Shown here: one piece after another, positions 6,048 through 57,464 of the stretch
Position numbering within the stretch: the first letter of the stretch is position 1
Layout: every line of letters starts with the position of its first letter
NCBI GenBank assembly: GCA_030390025.1
Contig: CM059432.1
Coordinates: 27,592,001-27,656,000, forward strand
Reading direction: 5' to 3'
Source: Squalus acanthias
Lineage: Eukaryota
DNA: 64,000 nt
Position numbers and translations under genes: made by a program
Notes under the pieces: model-generated
Databases searched by the model: none
Told to the model about the DNA's origin: nothing
What the model saw: only the letters and a program-made list of their open reading frames with translations

Positions 6048-6482
6048 AGTTCAACAATTTTAGATCATAACCTCAGCTCCAATCACATTTATATTTTATT
6101 TTTTCCACCCTTTTATTTGCCCCCCCCACCTTTTTTTTCTCCTAGAAGCTGGCAGCTGTCCTTCATTCTGCCAGTGGATTTCACACTTCTTTCAGCCTTA
6201 ATCTGTCACATTAACACCACCTCTAGCCTTGCATATCTCTTAATGTCTCTTAATGTCTCTTCCTCTCCCCCTTTGTTCTTTTATCCTCTCCCCCTTTTCC
6301 CAGCTTTACTCTGGCCTTAAATCCATTTGATTTCCGGCTCTTCACAGTTCTGACGAAAGGTCATCGACCTGAAACGTTAACTCTCTTTCTCTCTCCACGG
6401 ATGCTGCCTGGCCTGCTGAGTTTTTCCAGCATTTTCTGTTGTTATTTCAGATTTCCAGCATCCGCAGTATTTTGCTATCGTA
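6048..6482 (+). mobile_element. 5'-truncated Penelope-like element, family B (ORF end + 3' repeat)
   Basis: Begins with the last codons (E)FNNFRS*, matching IEFNNFRQ* at 39363. Flanked by the 15-bp duplication tttgtaatgcggtcg (6033-6047, 6483-6497). Confidence 0.88.
6346..6382 (+). ncRNA. Minimal type I hammerhead ribozyme (family B)
   Basis: agtt-CTGACGA-a-aggtc(atc)gacct-GAAA-cg-tt-aact: intact core, stems I and II, palindromic stem III (AACGTT). Confidence 0.85.
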
Positions 6483-12154: not shown

Positions 12155-13207
12155 ATAGATAAATGGGTCATTTTCAGGTTGGCAAACTGTAACTAGTGGG
12201 GTGCTGCAGGGATCAGTGCTGGGGCCTCAACTATTTACAATCTATATTCATGACTTGGATGAAGGGACTGAGTGTAATGTAGCCAAATTTGCTGATGATA
12301 CAAAGATAAGTGGGAAAGCAAATTGTGCAGAGGACGCAAAGAATCTCCAAAGTGATACAGATAGGCTAAGTGAGTGGGCAAAAATCTGGCAGATGGAGTT
12401 TAATGTGGGAAAATGCGAGGTTATCCACTTTGGTAAGAAAAATAAAAAAGCAAATTACTATTTAAATGGAGAGAGATTACAAAATGCTGAGGTACAGAGG
12501 GATCTGGGGGTCCTTGTACATGAATCACAAAAAGTTAGCATATAGGTACAACAAGTAATTAGGAAGGCAAATGGAATGTTGGCATTTATTGCAAAGGGAA
12601 TGGTGTATAAAAGTAGGGAAGACCTGTTACAACTGTACAGGGCGTTGGTGAGACCACACCTGGAGTACTGCGTACAGTTCGGTCTCCTTATTTAAGGAAG
12701 GATATACTTGCATTGGAGGCAGTTCAGAGAAGGTTCACGAGGTTGATTCCAGAGATGAAGGTGTTGTCTTATGAAGAAAGGTTGAGCAGGTTGGGCCTAT
12801 ACTCATTGGAGTTTAGAAGAATGAGAGGGGATCTTATTGAAACATATAAGATTCTGAAGGGGCTTGACAGGGTAGATGCAGAGAGGATGTTTCCCCTTAT
12901 GGGGGAATCTAGAACTAGGGGGCATAATTTCAGAATAAGGGGGCACCCTTTTAAATCGGAAATGAGGAGGAATTTCTTCTCTCAGAGGGTTGTGAATCTT
13001 TGGAATTCTCTTCCCCAGAGAGCTGTGGAGGCTGGGTCATTGAATATATTTAAGGTGGAGATAGAGAGATTTTTGAAAGGTAAGGGAGTCAACGGGTTAT
13101 GGGGAGCGGGCAGGGAAGTGGAGTTGAGGCCAAGATCAGATCAGCCATGATCGAGGGGCCAAATGACCTGCTCCTACGTCTTATGTTCTTATGTCTTATG
13201 TTCTTAT
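12155..13207 (+). mobile_element. CR1 LINE, 5'-truncated (RT C-terminal half)
   Basis: QGSVLGP, KFADDTK, MRGDLIETYKIL, RVVNLWNSLP; ttcttatg tail. Confidence 0.93.
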
Positions 13208-15134: not shown

Positions 15135-15222
15135 TGACCAGATAATCTGTTTTTTGGTGATGTTGTTTGAAGGATAACCATTGGTTAGGACACTAGCGAG
15201 AACACCCCTGCTCTTCTTCGAA

Positions 15223-15585
15223 ATAGTGGTCATGATGCGGAGATGCCGGTGTTGGACTTGACATCATTGTCTGTCCTTCCAGTTTAAAATTTTTTTTTTT
15301 AAATAAAAAAGTTAAAAGCTTAACTGCAGACGGCAGCATTTGACATGTTGGACCCCCTGTGACCCACCTCATTGTCTTAGCTGTACTCTGATGTGTCTTT
15401 GATGTAATACCTCCCTGACGGATTATATCTTTGCAGACACATTGTTCTCTGTTTATATATATTGTGTAATCGATTTGTATTCCCTCACTGTACCTGTACC
15501 TGAAGAAGGAGCAGAGCTCCGAAAGCTCGTAATTTCAAATAAAACTGTTGGACTATAACCTGGTGTTGTGCGACTTCTCATTTTT
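15223..15585 (+). mobile_element. Short Penelope-like family A-related insertion (inverted tail + terminal repeat)
   Basis: 15223-15258 is the reverse complement of about 53710-53745. The rest aligns with 53350-53700. Flanks are ttcttcgaaatag / ttctttgaaatag. Confidence 0.85.
15497..15531 (+). ncRNA. Minimal type I hammerhead ribozyme (family A variant)
   Basis: tac-CTGAAGA-a-ggagc(aga)gctcc-GAAA-gc-tc-gta. Confidence 0.85.
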
Positions 15586-16564
15586 CTTTGAAATAGCGCC
15601 ATGGGATCTTTTATGCCCACCTGAGATGTCAATGGGGCCTCAGTTTAACATCTCATCTGAAAGGCAGCACCTCTGACAGTACAGCTGTCCCTCAGTACTA
15701 CACTGGCATGTGAGCCCAGATTTTATGCTCAAGCCTCTGGCGTGGGACTTGAACCCACAATCTTCTGACTCAGAGCCACAGCTAACATCTAGTAATAGCA
15801 TAGTAGTAGCGTCTTGGATATTTTACTATGTTAAGTTGTTGTCATGTTACTGGAATAGTAATCCAGATGCCTGGACTAATAATCCAGAGAACGTGAGTTC
15901 ATGGCACGTTGAGAAATCTAACTCAGTTTAAAACATTTGCTATCAGTAAAAGTGACCATGAAGCTGTTGGATTGTCATTAAAAACCCAACTGGTTCACTA
16001 ATGTCCTTTATGGAAGGAAACCTGCCACTCTTACCCGGTCTGGCCTATATGTGACTACAGTCTCACACCAATGTAGTTGACTCTTAACTGCCCCCTGAAG
16101 TGCACCCGCTCAGTTGTATCAATCTGCCACCTACGGGCCCACCACCACCTTCTCAGGGCAACCAGGGATGGGCAATAAATGCTGGCTTTGCCAGTGAAGC
16201 CCACATACCAAGAATTGATTTTTAGAAAGCACAAAGGACAAGAAATACATCATATGTCACATTTCTGTCATTTGTACCTAATTATAGTATGTTCACCCAT
16301 ATTTGGGTGAATGTATTATAGGCCCAGCAGACAATGCTGGAAGTGTTGAGGGTGAATGGGGAGCCAGTGGGACAGCTCCCAAAGAATTTCCCAACGTATG
16401 CCATTGAGAATCAGTGCAACTCAAGCAGAAAATCCAGGCCCTGATGCCTGCAAATACCACACTAACAGATCATAAAACTATGGATCAATCAATTAGATTA
16501 ACAGAAGCAAGGTCAAAGCAAATAGCAAATTTTAGCTCGATTACAATACCTTACATAACTCTTA

Positions 16565-20599: not shown

Positions 20600-22570
20600 T
20601 AATCCAGCCACCTACCCTTGACTTTCAATGGTTCCACCATCGCTAAGATTTCCACCATCAACATCGTGGGGGGTCACCAATGATCATCATATTAACTGGG
20701 CCAGATCAACAATGCGACTACAACAGCAGGGCAGAGGCTATGTACTCTCTGACGAATAGCTCATCTCCTGACCCGGCAACGCCTCTCCACCAACGGCAAT
20801 TCTCAAGCCAAGAGTGTGATGGAATACGCACCACTCACCTGAACTGGTGCAGCTGCAACAACACTCAAGAAGTTTGACACCCTCCAGGACAGAGAAGTCT
20901 GCATGATCGATACCCCTGCCACTGGATTCAATAATCATCCCCTCCACCACTGGCGCACTGTGGCTGCGAACTCATTTTTAATGTGGAAGCAAGTTATCCT
21001 CGGTTCCGAGGGATTGCCTAAGAAGACTGTGGCTGCAGTATGTATTTTTCAAAAGGCTTTCGATAAGGTACCACACGGTAGGCTCATGACAATGGTTAGG
21101 GCATGTGGAGTCAGGTGATAAATAGCTAAATGGATAGAAAATTGTCTAAAAATAGAAAGCAGGGAGTTGGGGTAAAGGGTAGTTATTCAGATTGGAGTAG
21201 GTTGGAAAGCGGTGTTCCACAAGGATCAGTGCTGGGACCACTGTTATTCAAAATTTACATTCATGATTTGGACTTAGGAACAAGTAACTCAATATCAAAA
21301 TTTGCAGATGATATCAAACTGGGGGGTATAGCTAACACTGAGGAAGAATGCAACATAATACAAGAAGACATTAGAAAACTTGCAGACTGGACAGTTAAGT
21401 GGCAAATGAACTTTAACATCGATAAATGTGAGGTGATGCACTTTGGTAGGAAAAATAGAAACATCAGCTTCACTTTAGAAAATAAGAAACTGAATGGGGT
21501 AGAAGAGCAAAGGGATCTAGGGATACAGGTCAACAAATCATTAAAAGCATCATTACAGGTAAGCAAAGCAACTAAAAATGCTAACAGAGTACTGGGATTT
21601 ATTTCTAGGGATATAGAATTCAAAAATAATGAAGTTAAGTTAAACTTCTTCAGGATCCTGCTCAGGCCACACTTAGAGTACTGTGCATAGTTCTGGTCTC
21701 CATACTATAAAAAGGACATAGAAACACTGGAGAAAGTGCAAAAAAGATTTACTAGGATGGTACCAGAACTGAGCGATTACAGCTATCGGGAAAGATTGAA
21801 CAGGTTGGGACTTTTAAGACTTAGAGGTGACCTGATAATGGTCTTTAAAATGATGAATGGGTTGGACAGGGTAGATGTGGAGAGAATGTTTCCACTTGTG
21901 GGAGAATCTAAAACGAGGGGCCATAAATACAAGATAGTTACAAATAAATCCAATAGGGAAATAAGGAGAAATATCTTTACTCAGAGAGTGATTAGAATAC
22001 GGAACTCACTTCCACAGGAAGAGGTTGAGGCAAATAGCTTAGATGTGTTCAAAAGGAAACTAGACAAATACATGAGAGAAAAAGGAATAGAAAGATATGC
22101 TGAAAGGCTGAGATGAGGTAGATGGAATGGAAGGAGATTCGTGTGGAGTATAAATACTACCACAGACTAGTTGGGCCGAATGGCCTGATTCTGTCCTGTA
22201 TATTCTATGTAATGTACTACCTGCAGAATGCATTGCAGCAACTCACCAAGCCTACTTTAACAGTACCTCCCAGCCACAAGGCCTCTCTTACCAAGAAGGA
22301 CAAGAGCAGCAAGCTCATGGAAATTTCCCCCACCTCCAAGTTCCCCTTCAAATCACATCCCATCCTGACTTGAACATATGCTGCTGTTCCTTTATTGCTG
22401 CAAGGTCAAATTCTTGGAATTCCCTATTTAACACCATTGTGGGAGCACCATCAGCACAAGGACTGCAGTGGTTCAAGGAGAAGGCCCACCACCACCTTCT
22501 CAGAGCAAGTAAGAATGGACAATAAAAAGAAAGCAGTTAGTCCAGTATCATCTGTGTCCCGAGAACAAAT
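20600..22570 (+). mobile_element. Family 1 LINE fragment with a nested CR1 (about 21046-22211) and a 58-bp insert
   Basis: Inner CR1 encodes GVPQGSVLGP, KFADDIK and LRGDLI. The outer LINE resumes at about 22212, collinear with 2055-2400. Confidence 0.85.
20968..21025 (+). mobile_element. 58-bp retroposed 3' end (possibly RTE-clade LINE)
   Basis: 11-bp TSD actgtggctgc (20957-20967, 21026-21036), stem-loop cctcggttccgagg, short aag tail. Confidence 0.7.
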
Positions 22571-28218: not shown

Positions 28219-29900
28219 AAATAGAAACAGAAAATGCTGGAAACACTCAGCAGGCCAGGCAGCATCTGTGGAGAGAGAAACAGAGTTAACGTTTCAGGTC
28301 AAAGACCCTTCATCAGAACTGGCAAAGGTTAGAGATGTAACAGGTTTTAAGCAAGTACAGAGGCAGGGAAAGGGGGGAGGGGAGGAAAGAACAAAAGGGA
28401 AGGTCTGTGATAGGGTGGAAGGCAGGAGAGATTAAAAGACAAAAGGGATGATGGGGCAAGGCAAAAGGGGTTGGCAATGGGACAAGTAAAGAAACAAAAA
28501 ATGGTTCTAGAGGAGCTGTAAATGGCAACAGCAGATTCATTGCCAGCAACTGCTGTCTGAAAAAAATGGGAGAGTGGTTATGATCTGAAATTGTTGAATC
28601 CAATGTTGAGTCCAGAAGGTTGTAAAGAGTCTAATCGAAAGATGATGTGCTGTTCCTAGAGCTTCCGTTGAGCTTCATTGAAACAAAGAGGACAAAGAGG
28701 TCAGAGTGGGAGCGGGGTGGTGAATTAAAATGGCAAGCGAACAGAAGCTCAGGGTCACGCTTATGGACTGAATGGAGGTGTTCTGCAAAGTGATTACCCA
28801 ATCTGCGTTTGGTATCGTGAGAAATGAATGCAGTATATTAAATTGAAAGAAGTACAAGTAAATCACTGTTTCACCTGGCAGGAGGGTATGGGGCCCTGGA
28901 TGGTGGGAAAGGAAGAGGTGAAAGGGCAGGTGTTGCATCCCCTTCGCTTGCAAGGGAAGGTGCTGTGGGAAGGGGAGCTGGTGCTGGGGTGATTGAAGAG
29001 TGGACCAGGGTGTCACGGAGGGAACAGTCCCTTCGGAATGCTGAAAGGGTGAGTAAGATGTTTGGTGGTGGCATCACGCTGGAGGTGGTGGAAATGGCGG
29101 AGGATGATCTGTTGAATATAGAGGCTGGTGGGGTGGAAGGTGAGGATAAGGGGAACCCTATTGTGGTTCTGCGAGGGAGGAGAAGGGGTGAGTGCAGAAG
29201 TGCAGGAAATGGGATGGACACTGTCGAGGGCCCTATCAACCATGGTGGAGGGGAATCCTTGGTTGAGAAAAAAGGAAGACATATCAGAAGCACTGGTGTG
29301 GAAGGTGGCATCGTCAGAACAGATGCGACGGAGACGGAGAAATTGGGAGAATGGAATATAGTCCTTACAGAAAGCGGGGTGGGAGGAAGTGTAATGATGG
29401 CAGCTGTGAGAGTTAGTGGGCTTATAGTAGATATTGGTCGACAGCCTAACCTCCCTAGAAATGGAGATAGGGAAGTCAAGGAAGGGACGAGTCAGAGTCA
29501 GAGATGGACCATGTGAAGGTGAGGGAGAGGTGGAAATTGGAAGCAAAGTTGATTAAGTTTTCTAATTCGGGCTGAGAACAGGAAGTGGTGCCGATACAGT
29601 CATCAATGTTCCGGAAAAAGAGGTGAGGGAGGAGACCTGAGTAGGACTCGAATAAAGAATGTTTCACGCATCCCACGAAAAGGCAGGCATAGCTAGGACC
29701 CATACCGGTTCCCATAGCAACACCTTTTATTTGGAAGAAGTGAGTGGAGTCAAAGAGAAGTTGTTCAATTAAGAACAAGTTCAGCCAGGTGGAGGAGGGT
29801 GGTGGTGGATGGGGACTGGTTGGGCCTCCGTTCAAGGAAGAAACGGAGAACCCTCAGACCGTTCTGCTGGGGGCGGAGGTGTAGAGGGAGTGGACTTTCT
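28219..29900 (-). mobile_element. Penelope-like family B, 5'-truncated and degenerate
   Basis: QIKGVAMGTGMGP, RNIDDCIG, YYKPTNSH, IPFSQFLRLRRICS. Confidence 0.9.
28284..28320 (-). ncRNA. Minimal type I hammerhead ribozyme (family B)
   Basis: Minus strand agtt-CTGATGA-a-gggtc(ttt)gacct-GAAA-cg-tt-aact. Confidence 0.85.
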
Positions 29901-37293: not shown

Positions 37294-38108
37294 ATAGAAT
37301 CATAGAATGGTTACAGCACAGAAGGAGGCCATTCGGCCCATCGAGCCCATGCCGGTTCTCTGCAAGAGCACCTCAGCTAGTCCCACTCCCCCGCCCTTTC
37401 CCCGTAGCCCTGCAATTTTTTTTCCTTCAGGTACTTATCCAATTCCCTTTTGAAAGTCACAATTGAGTCTGCCTCCACCACCCTTTCAGGCAGTGCATTC
37501 CAGATCCTAACCACTCGCTGCGTAAAAAGTTTTCCTCATGTCGCCTTTGGTTCTTCTGCCAATCACCTTAAATCTGTGTCCTCTGGTTCTCGACCCTTCC
37601 GCCAATGGGAACAGTTTCTCTCTATCTACTCTGTCTGGACCCATCATGATTTTGAACACCTCTATCAAATCTCCTCTCAACCTTCTCTGCTCTAAGGAGA
37701 ACATTCCCAGCTTCTCCAGTCTATCCACGTAACTGAAGTCCCTCATCCCTGGAATCATTCTCGTATATCGTTTCTGCACCCTCTCCAAGGCCTTCACATC
37801 CTTCCTAAAATGCAGTGCCCAGAATTGGACACAATACTCCAGTTGAGGCCGAACCAGTGTTTTATAAAGTTTCTTCATAACTTCCTTGCTTTTGTACTCC
37901 ATGCCCCTATTTATGAAGCCCAGTATCCCGTATGCTTTTTTAACCGCTTTCTCAACCTGCCCTGCCACCTTCAATGATTTGTGCACATCCACTCCCAGGT
38001 CTCTCTGTTCATGCACCCCCCTTGAGAATTGTACCCTTTAGTTTATATTGCCTGTCCTTGTTCTTCCTGCCAAAATGTAGCACTTCGTACTTTTCTGCGT
38101 TAAATTTC
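37294..38108 (-). mobile_element. CR1 LINE fragment
   Basis: RPQLEYCVQFW...LRGDLIEVFKIM. Confidence 0.92.
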
Positions 38109-39157: not shown

Positions 39158-40932
39158 CAGGTCTGGGACCCTTCATCAGAACTGGAAAAAGCTGGAGATG
39201 TAACAGATATTAAGCAGGTGCAGAGACAGGGGAGGGGGGGGTGGTTTAGGAGGGGAGGAAGGAATTGAAAGAATATACTGTGCTTATGTAAGAGGCAGGA
39301 AAGATAAAATGTTGCAAATGGGAATGGCAAAAATCATACAGCATGAAAAATGGGGGCAGGGATTATTGTCTGAAATTGTTGAACTCAATGTTGAGTCCGG
39401 AAGGCTGTAAAGTGCCTAATCGAAAAATGAGGTGCTGTTCCTCGAGCTTACGTTGAGCTTCATTGGAACAGTGTAATAGGCCGAGGACAGAGAGATCAGA
39501 GTGGGAGTGAAGCGGAGAATTAAAGTGACAAGCGACCGGGAGCTCGGGGTCACCCTTACGGACTGAACGGAGGTGTTCCACAAAGCGGTCACCCAATCTG
39601 CGTTTGGTCTCCCCAATGTAGAGGAGACCGCATCGTGAGCAGCGAATACAGTATATTAAATTGCAAGAATTACAAGTAAATCGCTGTTTCACCTGGAAGG
39701 GGTGTTTGGGGCCCTGGACAGTGGGAAGGGAGGAGGTAAAAGGGCAGGTGTTGCATCTCCTGCGCTTGCACGGGAAGGTGCCAGGCGAAGGAGAAGGGCT
39801 GTTAGGGGTGATTGAGGAGTGGACCAGGGTGTCGCGGAGGGAGCGGTCCCTTCAGAATGCTGAAAGGGGAGGTGAGGGGAAGATGTGTTCGGTGGTGGGA
39901 TCACGTTGGAGGTGGCGGAAATGGCGGAGGATTATCCGTTGAATGTGGAGGCTGGTGGGATGAAAGGTGAGAACAAGGGGAACCCTATCGTGGTTCCGGG
40001 AGGGAGGGGCAGGGGTGAGGGCAGAAGTGCGGGAGATAGAATGGACACGGTCAAGGGCCGTGTCAACCACAGTAGAGGGGAATCCTCGGTTGAGGAAAAA
40101 GGAAGACATGTCGGAAGCACTGGTATGGAAGGTGGCATTGTCAGAACAGACGCGGCGGAGACGGAGAAACTGGGAGAATGGAATAGAGTCCTTACAGGAA
40201 GCGGGGTGGGAGGAAGTGTAGTCCAGGTAGCTGTGGGAGTCAGTGGGCTTGTAATGGATGTTTGTCGAAAGCCGATCGCCAGAAATGGAGACCGAGAAGT
40301 CAAGGAAGGGAAGGGAAGAGTCGGAGATGGACCATGTGAAGGTGAGGGAAGGGTGGAAATTGGAAGTAAAGTGAATGAACTTATCTAGTTCAAGTCGAGA
40401 GCAGGAAACGGCACCGATACAGTCATCGATGTACCGGAAAAAGAGGTGAGGGAGGGGACCTGAGTAGGACTGGAACAAAGAATGTTCCACATATTCCATG
40501 AACAGGCAGGGCCCATGCGGGTTCCCATAGCAACACCTTTAATTTGGAGGAAGTGACTGGAGTCAGAGGAGAAGTTGTTTAATGTGAGAACAAGTTCAGC
40601 TAGGCGGAGGGTGGTGGTGGTGGATGGGGACTGGTTGGGCCTCTGTTCAAGGAAGAAACGGAGCGCCCTCAGGCCGTCCTGGTGGGGGATGGAGGTGTAG
40701 AGGGATTGGACGTCCATAGTGAAAAGGAGACGGTTGGGGCCAGGAAACTGGAAACTGTTAAAGTGACGGAGGGCGTCGGAAGAGTCGCGAATGTAGGTGG
40801 GAAGAGACTGGACAAGGGGAGAAAAAATAGAGTCGAGATAGGAAGAGATAAGTTCCGTGGGGCAAGAACAGGCTGAAACGATGGGTCTACCAGGGCAGCC
40901 CTGTTTGTGGATCTTGGGAAGGAGGTAGAAGT
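39155..40932 (-). mobile_element. Penelope-like family B, 5'-truncated (RT + GIY-YIG, frameshifted)
   Basis: LPKIHK, TMDVQSLYTSIPH, GVAMGTRMGP, RYIDDCIG, LIYCIRCSRCGLLYIGETKRRLGDRFVEH. Confidence 0.93.
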
Positions 40933-41004
40933 TCATCATTGGTTGTAAATTGCTTTGGGACATCCTGAGGTCGTGAAAGGCACTGTATAAATGCAAGTCT
41001 TTCT

Positions 41005-44000
41005 TTCTTTTTATATAGCGCCTTTAACATACGAAAACGTCCCAAGGCGTGTCACAGATCGTTATCTAACAATATTTGACACCGAGCCACATAAGGAGTG
41101 TTAGGGGAGATAGAGGTAGGTTTTAAGGAATGTCTTCAAGGAGGATAGAGATGGAGAGGCAGAGAGGTTTCCGGAGGGAATTCCAGAGCTTGGGGCCTTG
41201 GCATTTAAAGGCATGGCCGCCAATGGTGGAGCGATTAAAATTGAGGATGCTCAAGAGGCCAGAATTGGAGAGCACAGATATCTCGGAGGGTTGTAGGGCT
41301 GGAAGAGATTACAGAGATAGGGAGTGGGCGAGGCCATGAAGTGATTTAAAAACAAGGATGAGAATTTTAAAATCGAGGCCAATGTAGGTCAGCGAGCACA
41401 GGGGTGATGGGTGATGGGTGACTGGGACTTGGTGTGAGTTAGGACAAGGAGTTTTGGATGACCTCAAGTTTACGGAGGGTAGGACGTGGGAGGCTGGCCA
41501 GGAGTGCATTGTTTTAGTCAAGACCAGAGGTAACAAAGGCAGGGATGAGGGTTTCAGCAGCAGATGAGCTGAGGCAGGGGCGGAATCGAGCGATGTTACG
41601 GAGGTGGAATATGTGGTCAGAAGCTCATCTTGGGGTCAGATTTGACACTAAGGCTGCGAACAGTCTGGTTCAGCCTCAGACAGTTGCCAGGAAGAGGTAT
41701 GCAGTCGGTGGCTAGGGAACGGAGTTTGTGGCAGGGACCGAAGGCAATAGTCTTCCTAATATTTAGTTGGAGGAAAAATCTGCTCATCCAGTACTGGAGG
41801 TCGGACAAGTAGTCTGACAAATCAGAGGCAGTGGAGGGATCGAGAGAGGTGGTGGTGAGGTAGAGCTGGGTGTCGTCAGCATACATGTGTAAACTGGCAC
41901 TGTGTTTTCGGATGATGTCGCTGAGGAGCTGCATGTAGATGAGAAATAGGAGGGGGGTGGGTGCAAAGGATAGACCCTTGGGGGACACCAGGTGTAACGG
42001 TGCGGGAGCGGGAAGAGAAGCCATTGCAGGTGATTTTCTGGCTATGACTGGATAGATAAGAATGCAACCAGGCGAGTGCAGTCTCACCCAGCTGGACGAT
42101 GGTGGAGAGGTGTTGGAGGAGGATGGTGTGGTCAACTGTGTCAAAGGCTGCAGACAGGTCGAGAAGGACGAGCACGGATAGTTTACCGTTGCCATAGAAT
42201 GACATAAAAGACATAGGGGGAAAAATTCAGCTGCTTGCGCCTCCCGTTAGCGCCTTAAGAGGGCGCTAATGGGGCGTAAAGCAGCTAACGCCCGGGCGCA
42301 GCGCCGCCCACGCCTCCCGAAAAATTTAGTGGGAGGTTAGCGGCGGCGGCAGCCGGTAGCGCCCTGTGGCGCTGCGCCGCCGGCGATGACGTCATCGCCG
42401 TGCGCAGCACCCCGCTCGCGCCCCGGCCGCGATCTTCAGTCGCGCCCCCTGATTTACCGCCAGACGCTATGTCCGACGGGTTCAGGGAGGCGTACGTGCG
42501 GCCGGGGCGGCGATATTTAAAGGGGAGGTGGCAGGCGGCCATTTTTGTTGCTGGCCGCCTGCCAGCACCTGCCCCCGGCCCCCGTGAAGCCCCCCCACCG
42601 TGAAGTGCTGGCTGCGCTCCAAGAGCCCGGCACTTCTCTTGAGTGCCGGGCTCTTTTGCCGGCACTCCCGATCCCTGGGGGCCCAGCTGGGCCCCGGTTC
42701 GCGCTGCGCAGGGTCCCTCCCCTTTAAGAAGGGGAGGAAGGCCTGCAATACCGCGGCGCGACGTGCCGCAGCGCGTGGCGCTGCGGCACGTAGCGCCAGG
42801 ATATTCACTCGCAGCGCCCCAAGAGGGATGCGGGGTGCTTCCAGTGGCGCCCCGCTTCCCTCTTGGGGCGCAACCACTGAAGTTCCGGCGCGGGGCCGCT
42901 AATTTTTTCGGCGCGCTAAAAGTCGCGCCCCGGCGAGGTTAGCGCCCCAAATGGGGCGCGACTCAATTTTTACCCCATAGAATGTCTTTTGAGACTTTGA
43001 TAGCCGTTCTGGTACTGTGGCAGGGGTGAAAATCTGATTAGAGGGATTCAAATATGGAGTTCCGGGAAAGATGGACACGGATTTGGGAGGCGACAGCTGT
43101 TCAAGGACTTTGGAGATTAAAGGGAGGTTGGAGACGGGCGGTAGTTTGCAAGGACGGAGTGGTCAAGGGTTGTTTTTTGAGGAGAGGGGTGATGTTGGCA
43201 GATTTGAAGAGGGGGACAGTACCTGAGGAGAGAGAACTGTTAACAATATCAGTTAATATGGGAGCCAGGGAAGTTGGGTGGTCAGCAATTTAGTGAGAAT
43301 AAGGTCAAGGGAGCAGAAGGTGGGTCTCATGGACAAGATGAGCTCGCAGAGGGCATGAGGGGATATCGGAGAGAAATGAGAGAAAGATGTGAGTTTAGGG
43401 CTAGGGCAGGGGGGAACCTTAGAGGAGGTTTGGCCCGGTGGGCTAGGGAGGGAGGGAAGTGGCAGAGGCAGTTGATCGGATGGTCTCAATCTTAGTGACA
43501 AAGAAGTCCTTGAGCTCCTCGCACTTGTTGTTGGAGGTGAGGGTGGAGGAGACAGGGGAGAGGATTTTAAGAAAATGGTTTACAGTAGAGAAAAGAAGCC
43601 AGGGTTATCTTTGCATTCCAGGATGATTCTGGAATAGTGAGCAATTTTGGCAGACGAGAGCAGGACCCGATAATGCTTTGTGTGGTCCAGCCAGGTCTGG
43701 CAGTGAAATGGTTAAACCAGTTTTCCGCCATATCTGTTCAAGTCTGCGTCCCTTGGACTTAAGGGAGCGAAGATGAGGGCCGTACCAGGGGGCACGGTCA
43801 GGATGAGATAGAGTAATAGATTTAATGGGGTCTAGGGCATTTAAAGGTGGTGGTGAGGGTGTGGTTGAGCAGATCGGTAGCTGCAGAAATGTCCTGGTGA
43901 ATGGAGGGCCAAAGGCTGGACAGTTGGGATTTTGAAAGTGCAGTTGTAAGAGAATTAAGAGAGAGTTTTTTCCAGGGCCAGACACAGAAGGAAGTAGGGT

Positions 44001-48255: not shown

Positions 48256-48710
48256 GTGTCAGCTGTGGCTCAGTTGGTAGCACACTTGCCTCCTGAGTCA
48301 GAAGGTTGTGAGTTCAAGTCCCACTCCAGGGACTTGGAGCACATAAAGCTAGGCTGACACTCCAGTATAGTGCTGAAGGAGTGCTGCACTGTCGGAGGTG
48401 CCGTCTTTCGGATGAGACGTTAAACCGAGGCCCCATCTGCTCTCTCAGGTGGATGTAAAAGATCCCATGGCACTATTTCAAAGAAGAGCAGGGGAATTAT
48501 CCCCAGTTATCCCTCAACCAACATAACAAAAACAGATTATCTGGTCATTATCACATTGCTGTTTGTGGGAGCTTGCTGTGTGCAAATTGGCTGCCGCGTT
48601 TCTCACATTACAACAGTGACTCCACTTCAAAAGTACTTCATTGGCTGTAAAGTGCTTTGAGATGTCCGGTGGTCCAGAAAGGCGCTATATAAATGCAAGT
48701 CTTTCTTTCT
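48256..48710 (+). mobile_element. tRNA-derived SINE
   Basis: A and B boxes (tggctcagttgg, gagttcaagtccc); collinear with 24566-25044. Confidence 0.9.
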
Positions 48711-50970: not shown

Positions 50971-52074
50971 TAAATCCAGCAAGTGTCCATGCCAGTATGG
51001 GTGCATCTTAGGCACCCGCCAGAACAGGGAGGGGGTGCAAAATGCAGTACTGGGCAACTGCTCGGGGAACCAAATGGCACGACTGGGTGAAAATGCAAGA
51101 CTCAATGAAAACCAACCCTTTTTATAAGAGGACCAATTTTGTTGTGGCTGCCTGAAGTCTTCTGGGAAGATGGGGATGGATGGCGGGAGGCCGGGGGGTG
51201 TGGGGGGCAGTTCTTGGCAAGACCCCAGGATGGACACTTCTGAAAGCCTCACTTCTACTGTTTTATTGACCCAGACATTCAGGTCGCTCAGCACAAAGGA
51301 GACAGGAGCAGCAGGAATTTTGTGGGGTGGCGCTATCTTGCCGACGCCACCTCCTTCCTGACATCAGGCCAACATTGGGGCAGACAAAACTTTAGCTCGC
51401 ACCGCACCACCCCCATCGGGTGTTTCCTAATTAATGTCTTTGTGAAAGAGATGCAATGTTTTTGGGCTACCCGGATTCTAATCTCCACAAGCTCAGTCTT
51501 GCTGCCTTAATACCAGCACCCCGCCCCAAGCCTCGAGGAAATATGAGGCCGTAGTGTTTTCTGTACTGCACCAAAATTTGCATTCACTTCCTGAACAATA
51601 GGGATTATTCTCCAATTTCACAGCCATGGTAGGCAAGGCTTACCAACCAGTAGTATACGTTGGAAATTCATGTCATGATTTTGCAACCATTAACTTGAAT
51701 GGGTGGAAAATTACACCTTAATTAGCATTGCCCAATCACTTGTCCTTGCTGATCTCCACTGGCACTCTGTTCTCCATGCACCAAATCCAAGATCCTTAAT
51801 TTTGTTTACAATTCCATAATCTTGCCCACACTACCTCTGCAATCTCATCCAGCCACAATCCCAGCCTTTGGTCCTCCGACTCTGCCTCTTGTGTATTCAC
51901 CACCCCACCACCAACCCCCCTCCCCCCCCGCCCCCCCCCCCCCCCCGCCCCACCAACGCCCCTCCCCTGGCATTGCTTACTTGTCATGATGCGGAGATGC
52001 CGGTGTTGGACTGGGGTGGACAAAATTGAGAGGTCGCACAACACCAGGTTATAGTCCAACAGTTTTATTTGAAA

Positions 52075-52112
52075 TCACAAGCTTTCGGAGCTATCACTCC
52101 TTCCTCAGGTGA
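52075..52112 (-). ncRNA. Minimal hammerhead ribozyme, inverted copy
   Basis: Exact reverse complement of 53610-53647. Confidence 0.85.
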
Positions 52113-52687
52113 AGTAAATTGGATACAGAATCGCCAGAGCATATATAGATGGAAAAAAAAGCATGTGTACTTTACAATTGCAGACCAATAAATTAAATCA
52201 TCCTGACTATCTGCCGAGGTGTGATAAAGTTAATTAAGTCAGCCAGGAAGGTACCACATCAAAAGACATAGCAAGATACAACTGAGACAATGAGGTGTAG
52301 TCGCAGGGGTTCCAACGTGTCAAAAGCTGCCGTCTGTATGTAAAACGAAAAGCTTTAAAAAAAATTTACTTTTTTACTGGGAAAATTTTTACTTTTTTAC
52401 TGGGAATCACATCTGTGAACAAGCTAACGACGACTCGAGTCCGGATCACGTCATGTATCGTGACATAAACCCAAGATCCCGATTGAGACCGTCTTCATGA
52501 GTGCGGAACTTGGCTATCAGTTTCTGCTCGATGATTTTGCGTTGTCGTGTGTTTCTAAGGTTGCCTTGGAGAACGCTTACCCGCAGATCCGAGGCTGAAT
52601 GTCCTTGACTGCTGAAGTGTTCCCCGACTGGGAGGTAACAATCCTGCCTGGCGATTGTTGCGCGGTGCTCGTTCAACACTTCTCAGC

Positions 52688-53276
52688 TCTTCGCAGCCTT
52701 CAACATGTCATCGATGACGACAAACACCTCGCTAAGGCCATCCCCACGCCTCCACTACTTGCCTTCAAACAGCCGCCTAACCTCAGAAGTACCATCGTTC
52801 GCAGCAAATTACCCAGCTTTCAGGATAACAGCGACCACGACACCACACAACCCTGCCATGGCAAACTCTGCAAGACATGCCAGATCATCAACACAGATAC
52901 CACCATCACACGTGAGGACACTACCCACCAGGTACATGGTACATACTCATGTGACTCGGCCAACGTTGTCTACCTCATACGTTGCAGGAAAGAATGCACC
53001 GCGGCATGGTACATCGGCGAGACCATGCAGACACTGAGACAACGTATGAACGAGCACCGCGCAACAATCGCCAGGCAGGATTGTTACCTCCCAGTCGGGG
53101 AACACTTCAGCAGTCAAGGACATTCAGCCTCGGATCTGCGGGTAAGCGTTCTCCAAGGCAACCTTAGAAACACACGACAACGCAAAATCATCGAGCAGAA
53201 ACTGATAGCCAAGTTCCGCACTCATGAAGACGGTCTCAATCGGGATCTTGGGTTTATGTCACGATACATGACGTGA
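52688..53276 (+). pseudogene. Duplicated GIY-YIG-coding 3' part of the Penelope-like ORF
   Basis: Translation is identical to the C-terminus of the full ORF; it has no start codon of its own. Confidence 0.9.
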
Positions 53277-53609
53277 TCCGGACTCGAGTCGTCGTTAGCT
53301 TGTTCACAGATGTGATTCCCAGTAAAAAAGTAAAAATTTTTCCAGTAAAAAAGTAAATTTTTTTTAAAGCTTTTCGTTTTACATACAGACGGCAGCTTTT
53401 GACACGTTGGAACCCCTGCGACTACACCTCATTGTCTCAGTTGTATCTTGCTATGTCTTTTGATGTGGTACCTTCCTGGCTGACTTAATTAACTTTATCA
53501 CACCTCGGCAGATAGTCAGGATGATTTAATTTATTGGTCTGCAATTGTAAAGTACACATGCTTTTTTTTCCATCTATATATGCTCTGGCGATTCTGTATC
53601 CAATTTACT

Positions 53610-53647
53610 TCACCTGAGGAAGGAGTGATAGCTCCGAAAGCTTGTGA
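53610..53647 (+). ncRNA. Minimal type I hammerhead ribozyme upstream of the ORF
   Basis: tcac-CTGAGGA-a-ggagt(gata)gctcc-GAAA-gc-tt-gtga; palindromic stem III (AAGCTT); AATAAA at 53653-53658. Confidence 0.87.
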
Positions 53648-53734
53648 TTTCAAATAAAACTGTTGGACTATAACCTGGTGTTGTGCGACCTCTCAATTTT
53701 GTCCACCCCAGTCCAACACCGGCATCTCCGCATC

Positions 53735-56413
53735 ATGACCACTATCGACACCACAAACTGCCGGCTCAAAGTGGAGAGAATCGCCAAGAAGATCGCGCAT
53801 ATCGACACCGACATCAAGTATCTACAGAGATGCAAGAAAGCAGACAAGATCCCGAAAGGACTACAGATCACGAACCCACTCAAGTCGACATACAACACAG
53901 ACTACGCTGAGAGACTCTGCCGTCGTACCTCTCGCACACTCCTCAACCATCTCGTACACCAGCTCTACAGCAAACGCCACAACCTCGAAACCAAGATAGA
54001 GTCCATGCTCTCAGCCTGTGCTCAGGACACAGCAGACCAGTTACGAGACACCACCAAACAGACGAGGCAACGGAACTACGCTGCCTACATGCGCATCAAG
54101 AACAGGAAGCTTGAGAAACTCGGCATCACCACCAGCAGCAACCAAGCCTCCCCCGGTACCACGGCTGCAACCACAGGGAAGTCCATCGTCAACTTGTCCG
54201 ACCATACCCTTCAACCAGACGAAATCGAAGTTCTCGCCCTAGGGCTCAAGTACTGCCCAACCACCAAAATGGACCCCATCGGTCTCGCGGCAGACACGGA
54301 GGAATTCATCAGGAGAATGAGGCTCCGGGAATACTTCCACAAATCCCAAGATGTCAGCAACAAACCCAATGAGACAATCAATGATCCAGAACAGCAGACA
54401 GAGGGACTCGCAGTGCAGCAACCGAAGAAAAAAGAGTCAAACTGGACCCCTCCGGAGGGTCGCTGCCCCAAGCTTGACATGTATGCTCAAGCTGTCAGGA
54501 AATGCATCAACGCCAGATTCATCAGCCGCACTCACAAGACAGTCCAGAATGTCACCCGAGCACAACGCAACGCCATCCACGCTCTCAAGACCAACCGCAA
54601 CATTGTCATCAAACCAGCGGACAAAGGAGGAGCCATCGTCATACAGAACAGAACGGACTATTGTAAAGAAGCATACCGACAACTGGACAACCAGGAACAC
54701 TACAGACAGCTACCCGCAGATCCGACCAAAGAACACACCCGCCAACTCAATAGACTGATCAAGACCTTCGATCCAGACCTTCAAAACATCCTACGCGCTC
54801 TCATCCCACGTACTCCCCGCGTGGGAGACTTCTACTGCCTCCCAAAGATACACAAAGCCAACACACCCGGACGTCCTATCGTATCAGGCAATGGAACCCT
54901 GTGTGAGAACCTCTCTGGATACGTCGAGGGCATTCTGAAACCCATCGTACAGGGAACCCCCAGCTTCTGTCGCGACACTACAGACTTCTTACAGAAACTC
55001 AGCACCCACGGACCAGTTGAACCAGGAACACTCCTTGCCACGATGGACGTATCGGCACTCTACACCAGTATCCCCCACGATGACGGCATCGCTGCAACAG
55101 CCTCAGTACTCAACATCAACAACAGCCAATCTCCAGACGCCATCCTACAACTCATCCGCTTCATCCTTGACCACAATGTCTTCACCTTCGACAACCATTT
55201 TTTTACCCAAACACACGGAACAGCCATGGGGACCAAATTCGCACCCCAATACGCCAACATCTTCATGCACAAGTTCGAGCAAGACTTCTTCGCTGCACAG
55301 GACCTCCAGCCAACGCTGTACACCAGATACATCGACGACATTTTCTTCCTTTGGACCCATGGCGAAGGATCACTGAAAAGACTACACGATAACATAAACA
55401 AGTTCCATCCCACCATCAAACTCACCATGGACTACTCCTCAGAATCGGTCTCATTCCTGGACACACGAATCTCCATCAAAGACGGACACCTCAGCACTTC
55501 ACTCTACCGCAAGCCCACGGACAACCTCACGATGCTCCACTTCTCCAGCTTCCACCCTAACCATGTTAAAGAAGCCATCCCCTATGGACAAGCCCTGCGA
55601 ATACACAGGATCTGCTCAGACGAGGAGGAACGCGATGGACACCTACGGACGCTGAAAAACGCCCTCGTAAGAACGGGATATGACGCTCGACTCATCGATC
55701 GACAGTTCCGACGGGCCACAGCGAAAAATCGCATAGACCTCCTCAGAAGGCAAACACGGGACACAACCAACAGGGTACCCTACGTCGTCCAGTACTTCCC
55801 CGGAGCGGAGAAACTACGACATGTTCTTCGCAGCCTTCAACATGTCATCGATGACGACAAACACCTCGCTAAGGCCATCCCCACGCCTCCACTACTTGCC
55901 TTCAAACAGCCGCCTAACCTCAGAAGTACCATCGTTCGCAGCAAATTACCCAGCTTTCAGGATAACAGCGACCACGACACCACACAACCCTGCCATGGCA
56001 AACTCTGCAAGACATGCCAGATCATCAACACAGATACCACCATCACACGTGAGGACACTACCCACCAGGTACATGGTACATACTCATGTGACTCGGCCAA
56101 CGTTGTCTACCTCATACGTTGCAGGAAAGAATGCACCGCGGCATGGTACATCGGCGAGACCATGCAGACACTGAGACAACGTATGAACGAGCACCGCGCA
56201 ACAATCGCCAGGCAGGATTGTTACCTCCCAGTCGGGGAACACTTCAGCAGTCAAGGACATTCAGCCTCGGATCTGCGGGTAAGCGTTCTCCAAGGCAACC
56301 TTAGAAACACACGACAACGCAAAATCATCGAGCAGAAACTGATAGCCAAGTTCCGCACTCATGAAGACGGTCTCAATCGGGATCTTGGGTTTATGTCACG
56401 ATACATGACGTGA
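53735..56413 (+). CDS. Penelope-like RT + GIY-YIG endonuclease (892 aa from the first ATG), probably Neptune-type
   Basis: Uninterrupted frame with KPADKG, LPKIHK, TMDVSALYTSIPH, GTAMGTKFAP, RYIDDIF, a Cys-rich linker (PCHGKLCKTC...C) and VVYLIRCRKECTAAWYIGET...RMNEH...EHF. The 53663 start in the ORF track is a TTG. Confidence 0.96.
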   Translation: MTTIDTTNCRLKVERIAKKIAHIDTDIKYLQRCKKADKIPKGLQITNPLKSTYNTDYAERLCRRTSRTLLNHLVHQLYSKRHNLETKIESMLSACAQDTADQLRDTTKQTRQRNYAAYMRIKNRKLEKLGITTSSNQASPGTTAATTGKSIVNLSDHTLQPDEIEVLALGLKYCPTTKMDPIGLAADTEEFIRRMRLREYFHKSQDVSNKPNETINDPEQQTEGLAVQQPKKKESNWTPPEGRCPKLDMYAQAVRKCINARFISRTHKTVQNVTRAQRNAIHALKTNRNIVIKPADKGGAIVIQNRTDYCKEAYRQLDNQEHYRQLPADPTKEHTRQLNRLIKTFDPDLQNILRALIPRTPRVGDFYCLPKIHKANTPGRPIVSGNGTLCENLSGYVEGILKPIVQGTPSFCRDTTDFLQKLSTHGPVEPGTLLATMDVSALYTSIPHDDGIAATASVLNINNSQSPDAILQLIRFILDHNVFTFDNHFFTQTHGTAMGTKFAPQYANIFMHKFEQDFFAAQDLQPTLYTRYIDDIFFLWTHGEGSLKRLHDNINKFHPTIKLTMDYSSESVSFLDTRISIKDGHLSTSLYRKPTDNLTMLHFSSFHPNHVKEAIPYGQALRIHRICSDEEERDGHLRTLKNALVRTGYDARLIDRQFRRATAKNRIDLLRRQTRDTTNRVPYVVQYFPGAEKLRHVLRSLQHVIDDDKHLAKAIPTPPLLAFKQPPNLRSTIVRSKLPSFQDNSDHDTTQPCHGKLCKTCQIINTDTTITREDTTHQVHGTYSCDSANVVYLIRCRKECTAAWYIGETMQTLRQRMNEHRATIARQDCYLPVGEHFSSQGHSASDLRVSVLQGNLRNTRQRKIIEQKLIAKFRTHEDGLNRDLGFMSRYMT

Positions 56414-56746
56414 TCCGGACTCGAGTCGTCGTTAGCTTGTTCACAGATGTGATTCCCAGTAAAAAAGTAAAAATTTTCCCAGTAAAAAAGTAAATTTTTT
56501 TTAAAGCTTTTCGTTTTACATACAGACGGCAGCTTTTGACACGTTGGAACCCCTGCGACTACACCTCATTGTCTCAGTTGTATCTTGCTATGTCTTTTGA
56601 TGTGGTACCTTCCTGGCTGACTTAATTAACTTTATCACACCTCGGCAGATAGTCAGGATGATTTAATTTATTGGTCTGCAATTGTAAAGTACACATGCTT
56701 TTTTTTCCATCTATATATGCTCTGGCGATTCTGTATCCAATTTACT

Positions 56747-56784
56747 TCACCTGAGGAAGGAGTGATAGCTCCGAAAGCTTGTGA
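56747..56784 (+). ncRNA. Minimal hammerhead ribozyme in the 3' repeat
   Basis: Identical to 53610-53647, 3137 nt downstream. Confidence 0.87.
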
Positions 56785-57464
56785 TTTCAAATAAAACTGT
56801 TGGACTATAACCTGGTGTTGTGCGACCTCTCAATTGCTTACTTGTGGCAGAGCTTTAGTCATTTTGGTTCTACACTCCAGAACTTTCTCTCTCCACCTTT
56901 TTGCATTGCTCTGTAGCTTCTCCTCCATCACCTCCTTACCCTTCATCAAGTTCCTCTCCTCTATGAGGCCCACTTCCTAATTCCTTGATCCACTCCCTAG
57001 CCAACTACTGACTGTTCAATTTCCCTTTCTTGCCCCAATGCTCAATAACTGTTAACAGCTCCCATTGTACAGACATTGTTTCCCTCCCCTTCAAAATTGT
57101 CATCATCACCTCCTGTTCCTAAAGCCCACTCTCAACCCCTTTATCCTCTTCAACTACTGCTCCATTTTTAAACCCTTTTCTTTTCTAAGGTGCTTAATGC
57201 ATCGTCACCACCCAGCCCATGCAGCCTTTTCCACAATTCTGTGTGAATCCCTTCAGTATGACTTCCACCATGCCACAGCACTGTATCATTGGTGACTCTG
57301 ACCTTGGTACACCATCCCTCCTGAACTCTCAGCAATGTTTGTCACAGTTGATTCCTCAGCCTCATCCACCGCCTATCTGTGGCCCACCTCCACGAGACTA
57401 CCCTCACAATTCCACTCCTACTCACCCCTCAGCCTTCTAAATTCAAGGACGTACAAATTATGTT

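Follow-up and report, generated by a model that had tools for sequence, protein, structure and literature searches.

The window analysed here, a stretch of 64,000 nucleotides (nt) of the Squalus acanthias genome (GenBank assembly GCA_030390025.1, contig CM059432.1, forward-strand positions 27,592,001 to 27,656,000), contains an intact and comparatively young copy of a Penelope-like element (PLE). Its motifs indicate the Neptune clade, and the arrangement of the insertion leads us to think that this copy was probably made by two-ended target-primed reverse transcription, with a separate complementary DNA (cDNA) started at each of two nicks. PLEs encode the closest relatives of the telomerase reverse transcriptase (RT), and their replication cycle is still unsettled. 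All positions below are those of the window.

From left to right, the insert consists of a 13-bp target-site duplication, an inverted arm with a tail, a filler, a direct repeat, the open reading frame (ORF), a second direct repeat and the duplication again (Table 1). The direct repeats at 52688-53698 and 55825-56835 have one mismatch in 1011 nt, at position 53341. The inverted copy at 51983-52675 differs from 53047-53739 by a single mismatch, again at 53341, and is identical to 56184-56835 over 652 of 652 nt; at 53341 the inverted arm has the letter of the 3′ repeat and differs from the 5′ repeat. Within the window the 13-mer of the duplication occurs only as its two border copies, and a match of at least 13 was seen at 16 of 20,000 random right borders, a null set that did not exclude the true border positions. 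The duplication and the element have 2 nt in common at the left border and 3 nt at the right one, which leaves a true duplication length of 8-13 bp. At either border it is a 3′ end of the element that faces the duplication, and these ends define two putative start sites of reverse transcription, A and B. The head-to-head junction between the arms is not palindromic, as the direct arm extends 359 nt further 5′ than the inverted arm. The 12-nt filler at this junction (52676-52687) was probably templated from nearby element sequence, judging by its resemblance to it. Short templated fillers are a mark of polymerase-theta-type end-joining.

The initial annotation of this DNA had described a Penelope-like element with its integration anatomy, an uninterrupted 892-amino-acid (aa) ORF, a target-site duplication and three repeat copies with a lone mismatch at 53341. 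We recovered all of these: 53735-56413 translates without a stop, the 13-mer lies at 51972-51984 and 56833-56845, pairwise comparison agrees on the mismatch, and the RT, the GIY-YIG domain, the tandem and inverted repeats, the tail and the duplication were all found. The features listed for PLEs (PMC8557442) are partial tandem pseudo-long terminal repeats (pseudo-LTRs), an inverted 5′-truncated copy, a 30-40-nt tail and a short duplication. Each feature examined of an endonuclease-bearing (EN+) PLE is present in the shark insert, with a tail of 41 nt give or take the junction overlaps. A C-rich tract of 37 nt (51915-51951) lies 20 nt to the left of the insertion site and interrupts short-read contigs too.

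Table 1. Coordinates of the insert, its parts and the older related insertion
Feature	Position	Strand	Remarks
Left target-site duplication	51972..51984	+	at most 13 bp; final 2 nt common to inverted arm
Inverted, 5′-truncated arm, 693 nt	51983..52675	-	copy of 53047-53739; outer end 5 nt inside ORF, putative start site B
Tail, 41 nt	51983..52023	-	on inverted arm, missing at right end
Minimal hammerhead, inverted-arm copy	52075..52112	-	descriptor search
Filler, 12 nt	52676..52687	+	head-to-head junction; resembles nearby 53101-53111 plus 2 additional nt
5′ direct repeat (pseudo-LTR, partial tandem), 1011 nt	52688..53698	+	last 589 nt of ORF plus 422-nt untranslated region (UTR)
Minimal type I hammerhead	53610..53647	+	predicted cut after 53643; AATAAA then at 53653
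Stretch between putative start sites A (53695-53698) and B (53737-53739)	53695..53739	+	inferred from insertion ends
892-aa ORF	53735..56413	+	helical N-terminal region, DKG 296-298, RT with YIDD 532-535, thumb, linker, GIY-YIG
3′ direct repeat	55825..56835	+	stops at putative start site A; without poly(A)
Long Neptune-type Cys linker	55991..56089	+	C753-x4-C758-xx-C761 ... C785
GIY-YIG endonuclease	56102..56386	+	C796, C800, R816, H820, H836, H842, E866, N881
Minimal hammerhead, 3′ copy	56747..56784	+	descriptor search
Right target-site duplication	56833..56845	+	initial 3 nt common to element
Older related insertion in SINE-like repeat	15215..15598		duplication 15215-15228 / 15585-15598, 14 bp, 2 mismatches

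The protein has the make-up of an EN+ PLE, a single ORF that combines a telomerase-related RT with a C-terminal GIY-YIG domain carrying CCHH and the R, H, E and N residues. In Pfam, RVT_1 matched on the whole protein (E 1.4e-8), and GIY-YIG (PF01541) reached 22.8 bits against a cut-off of 22.6 with the isolated C-terminal 147 aa only. A protein model built from an 88-sequence alignment (predicted local distance difference test, pLDDT, 91.9) retrieved telomerase chains at ranks 1-9 in Foldseek and at ranks 1, 2 and 4 in VIA-align (Z 16.8, root-mean-square deviation (rmsd) 4.0, 313 aligned), and residues 788-884 of the model match the I-TevI nuclease (Z 10.7, rmsd 1.9, 91 aligned). A PDB sequence search with the protein gave one match, at E 0.9, and no solved PLE structure was found by that search, Foldseek or VIA-align. 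Comparison with 120 homologues gives 128 columns with a conservation of 85% or higher; the shark protein deviates at five of them (Y173, C390, E398, L550 and I733), none of which is catalytic. The coding strand contains little T (13% at codon positions 1 and 3) and lacks both AATAAA and ATTAAA. Over the last 186 codons (55859-56377), the 23 variable letters listed, a selected subset, comprise 14 that change a residue and 9 that are silent.

From the Cys-rich linker the initial annotation had pointed to a Neptune-type element. That call stands on linker length and RT motif B; the Cys motif by itself does not decide the matter, since a CX2-5CxxC linker is common to Neptune and Nematis (PMC8557442). 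In this protein the CxxC and the following Cys are spaced by 24, whereas in the reference alignment we counted by eye 26-28 for four rows of Neptune type and 8 for three of Nematis; among 121 proteins, the 78 that match the pattern have spacings of 24-34. Motif B ends in FAPQYAN, and by eye motifs A and B resemble two Neptune reference rows. Taken together, the length of the linker and the RT motifs point to Neptune and away from Nematis, whose reduced linker (spacing 8) is not what we see here. The Penelope/Poseidon clade was ruled out by the presence of the CX2-5CxxC linker, which it lacks, and the Naiad/Chlamys and Hydra clades, marked by an N-terminal endonuclease or by DKT and a lost CCHH, by the C-terminal endonuclease and the presence of DKG and CCHH. 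Neptune is described as paraphyletic (PMC8557442), and our RT trees of 32 and 125 rows held no labelled clade references, so the assignment rests on motifs.

Each of the three repeat copies also bears a hammerhead motif, which the initial annotation had missed; a minimal type I hammerhead in the pseudo-LTR, here predicted from sequence, is a further PLE feature. In a set of four sequences (this hammerhead, that of the older relic described below and two from another family), which are few and related, 39 of 40 cells are paired and 7 of 10 pairs are altered on both sides. The bulge, G-C pair and palindromic helix III that PMC4209133 describes are all present in the motif. An Rfam scan returned no hammerhead family and only two chance matches. 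The role of PLE hammerheads has been termed unknown (PMC7761336). Upstream of the ATG, a donor-like splice motif at 53140-53148 and an acceptor-like motif at 53700-53711 outline a candidate intron in the 5′ repeat, and the inverted arm of the relic ends at the position equivalent to 53710. No joint matching a 53140/53711 intron was present among the contig joints listed (28 others stand outside that list).

Because an element 3′ end, and thus a cDNA start, lies on each side of the insert, two nicks that each prime a cDNA are the simplest reading of the structure. We infer each enzymatic step from what is observed, namely the anatomy, the duplication, the two end positions, the protein motifs and the hammerhead motif. 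Under two-ended priming, the RT-endonuclease protein would bind its RNA near the ORF start, as suggested by the Poseidon element of the anole, and the GIY-YIG domain would nick both target strands 8-13 bp apart, as suggested by the duplication. At site A, some 36-40 nt ahead of the ATG, the 3′-OH of the bottom strand would then prime the cDNA that gives the direct arm of 4148 nt (1.32 units), and at site B, which lies on the start codon, the 3′-OH of the top strand would prime another, giving the 693-nt inverted arm; the distance from A to B would constitute the tail. Lastly, end-joining, probably by the host, would connect the two truncated cDNAs head to head through a short templated filler and complete the fill-in. 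An arm of 1.32 units could reflect an RNA of several units, a jump between templates or a circular template. Read-through alone would shorten the pseudo-LTR at every round, which argues for a regenerating step. The lone difference at 53341 implies that the templates of the inverted arm and the 5′ repeat were identical over their common stretch; since a single read-through RNA would provide the same template stretch for both, the change presumably arose during or after insertion or is a sequencing artefact.

There is biochemical precedent for such a pathway. Purified anole Poseidon nicks and extends both strands, two start sites bound its tail, it prefers ATT, and sense RNA served as its template in vitro (PMC11167929); the target duplication in the shark also starts with ATT. 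A term search of the available text of PMC11167929 found no treatment of inverted repeats. Further support comes from a second, independent and older insertion in the window (15229-15584), likewise absent from the initial annotation. Its inverted arm is 30 nt long (15229-15258) and starts at the equivalent of site B (53739), and its direct arm of about 325 nt ends within 5 nt of site A, so that relic and intact insert end at the same two positions. The UTR alignment is only 66% overall, yet with full identity across 39 nt round AATAAA and across 36 nt in the tail region. A 6-nt overlap at the left end of the relic is ambiguous, as other copies of the SINE-like repeat have either letter.

The family could also be followed in sequencing runs. 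In 18 of the 24 runs listed, the share of sampled words present is 0.44 or more. Nine of these runs belong to organism A and come from three studies (0.60-0.83), eight belong to organisms B, C and D (0.44-0.56, shares that by themselves are not interpretable) and one is unlabelled. Contigs from four of the 24 were mapped on 51100-53046. Run X1 gave 20332 contigs and X5 14322, of which 7475 and 4696, respectively, are at least 99% alike, and the X1 flank is represented by a single contig. Summed contig depth in X1 is 11.4 on the flank and 0.6-2.0 million over the element, rising to 5.5 million at its end, which is a hint of abundance only and no copy number. The family is very abundant in the runs of the best-matching organism. 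Contigs joined to unrelated sequence stop near site B (57 at 51986 in X5, 9 at 51983 in X6), and 10 of the 15 joints listed, with 28 more outside the list, are inverted-to-direct joints at other positions, two of them found in both X1 and X5; these inversion joints imply that the anatomy of the insert recurs in the family. Run X6 may be an RNA run, and we draw nothing about transcription from it. A 21-letter contig filler that was first taken as templated has been dropped, as it is more likely a diverged continuation. The left junction and the filler junction of the insert itself are bridged by no contig listed, and the X1 flank contig ends at the C-rich tract, at 51897. In run X18 (organism C), 73 contigs map on 52062-52975, 36 of them at least 99% alike and some with long unrelated flanks; these near-identical contigs may come simply from a related shark, or from transfer.

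Several points weigh against two-ended priming or soften its support. The in vitro precedent comes from a different clade, Poseidon; only two insertions can be read from end to end, and the 2-3-nt overlaps at the junctions fit poorly with the homology-free priming of the anole element. Among the 10 inversion joints, 9 have a short side of fewer than 30 letters, and the mapped region could reveal only joints with unequal arms. The joints were taken from short-read contigs at 90% likeness in a very repetitive family, so some may be chimeras. As for the filler, its ungapped match was equalled in 840 of 20,000 random 12-mers, and its gapped match arose by chance in 6 of 5000, a statistic picked after the sequence had been seen. 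Near the start sites, fold stability does not exceed that of shuffled sequence (z 0.0 to -0.64), and a hairpin at site A is lost in one of three window sizes; conserved RNA hairpins at the start sites were rejected as not significant.

We weighed three other origins for the structure. The inverted arm could have formed by self-priming, through fold-back on an antisense template, with the endonuclease then resolving the intermediate, as was proposed for rotifer Penelope elements from palindromes at their inverted junctions (PMC3846280). The filler does resemble a short fold-back copy of the inverted arm; however, the junction is not palindromic and the arms are offset by 359 nt, 16 other joints listed are offset by 88-942 nt (though the mapped region favours such joints), and sense RNA was a working template in vitro (PMC11167929). 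We consider this origin unlikely. We also think it improbable that a single priming event gave the direct arm and that the inverted arm was copied later, while the second end was being repaired, with either the new DNA or a copy elsewhere in the genome as template. Such repair would suit the look of the filler and the fact that the inverted arm shares the letter of the 3′ repeat at the sole variable site, but it leaves unexplained why the outer end falls at site B in both insertions of the window and in many contigs. That the repeats are an assembly artefact seems very improbable. Assemblies are known to have difficulty with the tandem and inverted structures of PLEs (PMC8557442); here, however, an exact 13-bp duplication at both borders and a unique filler argue against one, as does the recurrence of the same anatomy in the independent relic and in published elements.

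A further alternative is compatible with the two-ended origin and concerns what the copy can still do. The anatomy may be real and the copy nonetheless no longer a source, being old in years, silenced or promoterless, with its near-identity owed to a low shark mutation rate or to gene conversion. We give this somewhat less than an even chance. One change in 2715 copy-sites amounts to 3.7 × 10^-4 per site. At the epaulette-shark rate of 7 × 10^-10 per site per generation (PMC10587355), this corresponds to an age of about 5 × 10^5 generations (95% range 1.3 × 10^4 to 2.9 × 10^6), with the reservation that the rate is that of another species and has its own wide interval, and that the age would be lower if the one change was an error of the RT or of sequencing. 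The initial annotation had called the element very recent. This holds in a relative sense only: with the low shark mutation rate, near-identical repeats allow for as many as about 3 million generations. At several sites, moreover, the letter of the window copy is the minority one (at 52903, for instance, it accounts for 12-15%), and the protein of this copy deviates at 21 of 543 columns conserved among shark relatives. Nine of these 21 match contig variants listed and look like subfamily differences rather than private decay, because other copies carry the window's letter there. Against loss of source activity, the alternative letter never makes up the whole depth at the X1 and X5 sites listed (10 further rows are outside that list), so the window's letters occur in other copies. 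Likewise, 8 of 798 letters differ between the flank and the X1 contig, roughly tenfold the divergence of the repeats (1 in 1011), and CpG is not depleted in the ORF (observed/expected 0.88 vs 0.26-0.38 in the flanks). The insertion is probably polymorphic, if X1 is from the same species and gene conversion played no part. That the element is potentially active, as the initial annotation suggested, is plausible.

Building on two-ended priming, we speculate that Neptune insertions follow a fixed two-ended rule that also accounts for the pseudo-LTRs, although we regard this extension as doubtful. In both insertions here the tail-bearing site supplies the inverted arm. We tentatively suggest an RNA of about one unit that would start at the hammerhead cut (after 53643) and end at the next hammerhead or just past AATAAA, the latter variant giving the RNA a short terminal redundancy. 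With both start sites only 52-96 nt from the RNA 5′ end, each cDNA would have to jump to the 3′ end, as in LTR-like strand transfer, or continue round a circular RNA. A second jump might then regenerate the partial tandem, and host templated end-joining might close the heads. The circle has been proposed before (PMC4209133); the combined jump/circle two-ended model was not found in the available text of the literature searched. It could be examined on many insertions, given the very large young family in sharks.

The closest named relatives of the protein are RefSeq predictions from other sharks, all of the same lineage: Heptranchias perlo (about 87-95% identity), Scyliorhinus torazame (about 77-87%), Mustelus asterias (about 72-83%) and Chiloscyllium punctatum (about 71-85%). 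These predictions are partial, and among the matches listed no shark protein spans more than 72% of the query. The 32-row tree (one row dropped as too short) places the protein with Heptranchias (support 97/97), Scyliorhinus with Mustelus (96/95) and Chiloscyllium with Hemiscyllium (100/99), and in the 125-row tree the protein again stands beside Heptranchias. The shark relatives thus track host groups, which fits vertical descent, and the placement suggests a host shark closer to Heptranchias than to the other four genera. Horizontal transfer was rejected, as among the matches listed no named non-shark protein exceeds 50% and the shark tree follows host groups. Unlabelled database relatives reach 61-64% (ENA, JGI) and at most 83% (EukProt and Logan fragments), and a metagenome scan found one locus, with a 28% match to the nuclease part only. 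Neptune is reported to be widespread in vertebrates (bioRxiv 10.64898/2026.07.22.740005, whose supplements may include shark families); we found no account of a shark or elasmobranch Neptune in the literature searched, a search that covered few subscription journals and neither Repbase nor Dfam.

The window contains other mobile sequences. A second, distant Penelope-like family is represented by broken copies at 39363-41023 (-) and 28649-29754 (-), which are 28-44% identical to the 892-aa protein; the one piece of it placed in the tree falls far from that protein. Minimal hammerheads at 6346-6382 (+) and 28284-28320 (-), each followed by a pyrimidine tract and an ATG that only in the 28.3-kb copy is preceded by an acceptor-like AG, probably belong to this second family. 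A repeat of about 415 nt (48296-48710), which we take to be SINE-like, has 14 other matching pieces at 77-90% identity, and the relic at 15.2 kb sits in one of them. The open frames at 12617-13150, 21130-21690, 37507-38037 and 41617-42246 are, by eye, presumably fragments of non-LTR (CR1/L2-type) RTs.

The element alone leaves existing knowledge unchanged, and its value is practical. In the literature searched we found no retrotransposition assay for Neptune, and the in vitro work found concerns one Poseidon. Two-ended priming, the function of the Cys linker and what the hammerhead does could conveniently be studied on this intact vertebrate Neptune, whose ends are clean, whose two end positions are defined and whose family is very large.

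Compared with the Neptune-clade references Neptune-1_Ac, DrerioNep1, Neptune1_Nv and Penelope1_XT (PMC8557442), the shark element shares a single ORF with RT and C-terminal GIY-YIG, DKG, GxKY, a long CX2-5CxxC linker, CCHH, an RT motif B of the form FAPxYAN and a hammerhead in the pseudo-LTR. Its linker is 2-4 residues shorter than theirs (spacing 24 vs 26-28), and the copy lies in non-microsatellite DNA near a C-rich tract, whereas the linker has elsewhere been tied to microsatellite targeting. Active Neptune subfamilies have been reported in killifish (PMC12602865). Pen2a_Av of the rotifer Adineta vaga (PMC3846280) likewise combines a pair of direct pseudo-LTRs with an inverted one next to them, and has a tail at one of its ends and a short duplication, in its case of 9 bp. 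Unlike Pen2a_Av, the shark copy has repeats of 1011 and 693 nt rather than 218 and 181 nt, an uninterrupted ORF, and arms that do not overlap and are joined by a filler. With PAc, the Poseidon of Anolis carolinensis that was described as the first PLE active in vitro (PMC11167929), it has in common two tail-bounding ends, an upstream hammerhead and the target ATT. PAc, however, is without the Cys linker, has one start site 111-118 nt into the ORF where shark site B lies at the start codon, and has a hammerhead that overlaps the ATG, in contrast to the shark motif, whose predicted cut falls 91 nt before it. The anatomy is thus the typical one published for PLEs, and the element is a further member of a known clade rather than a new kind of element.

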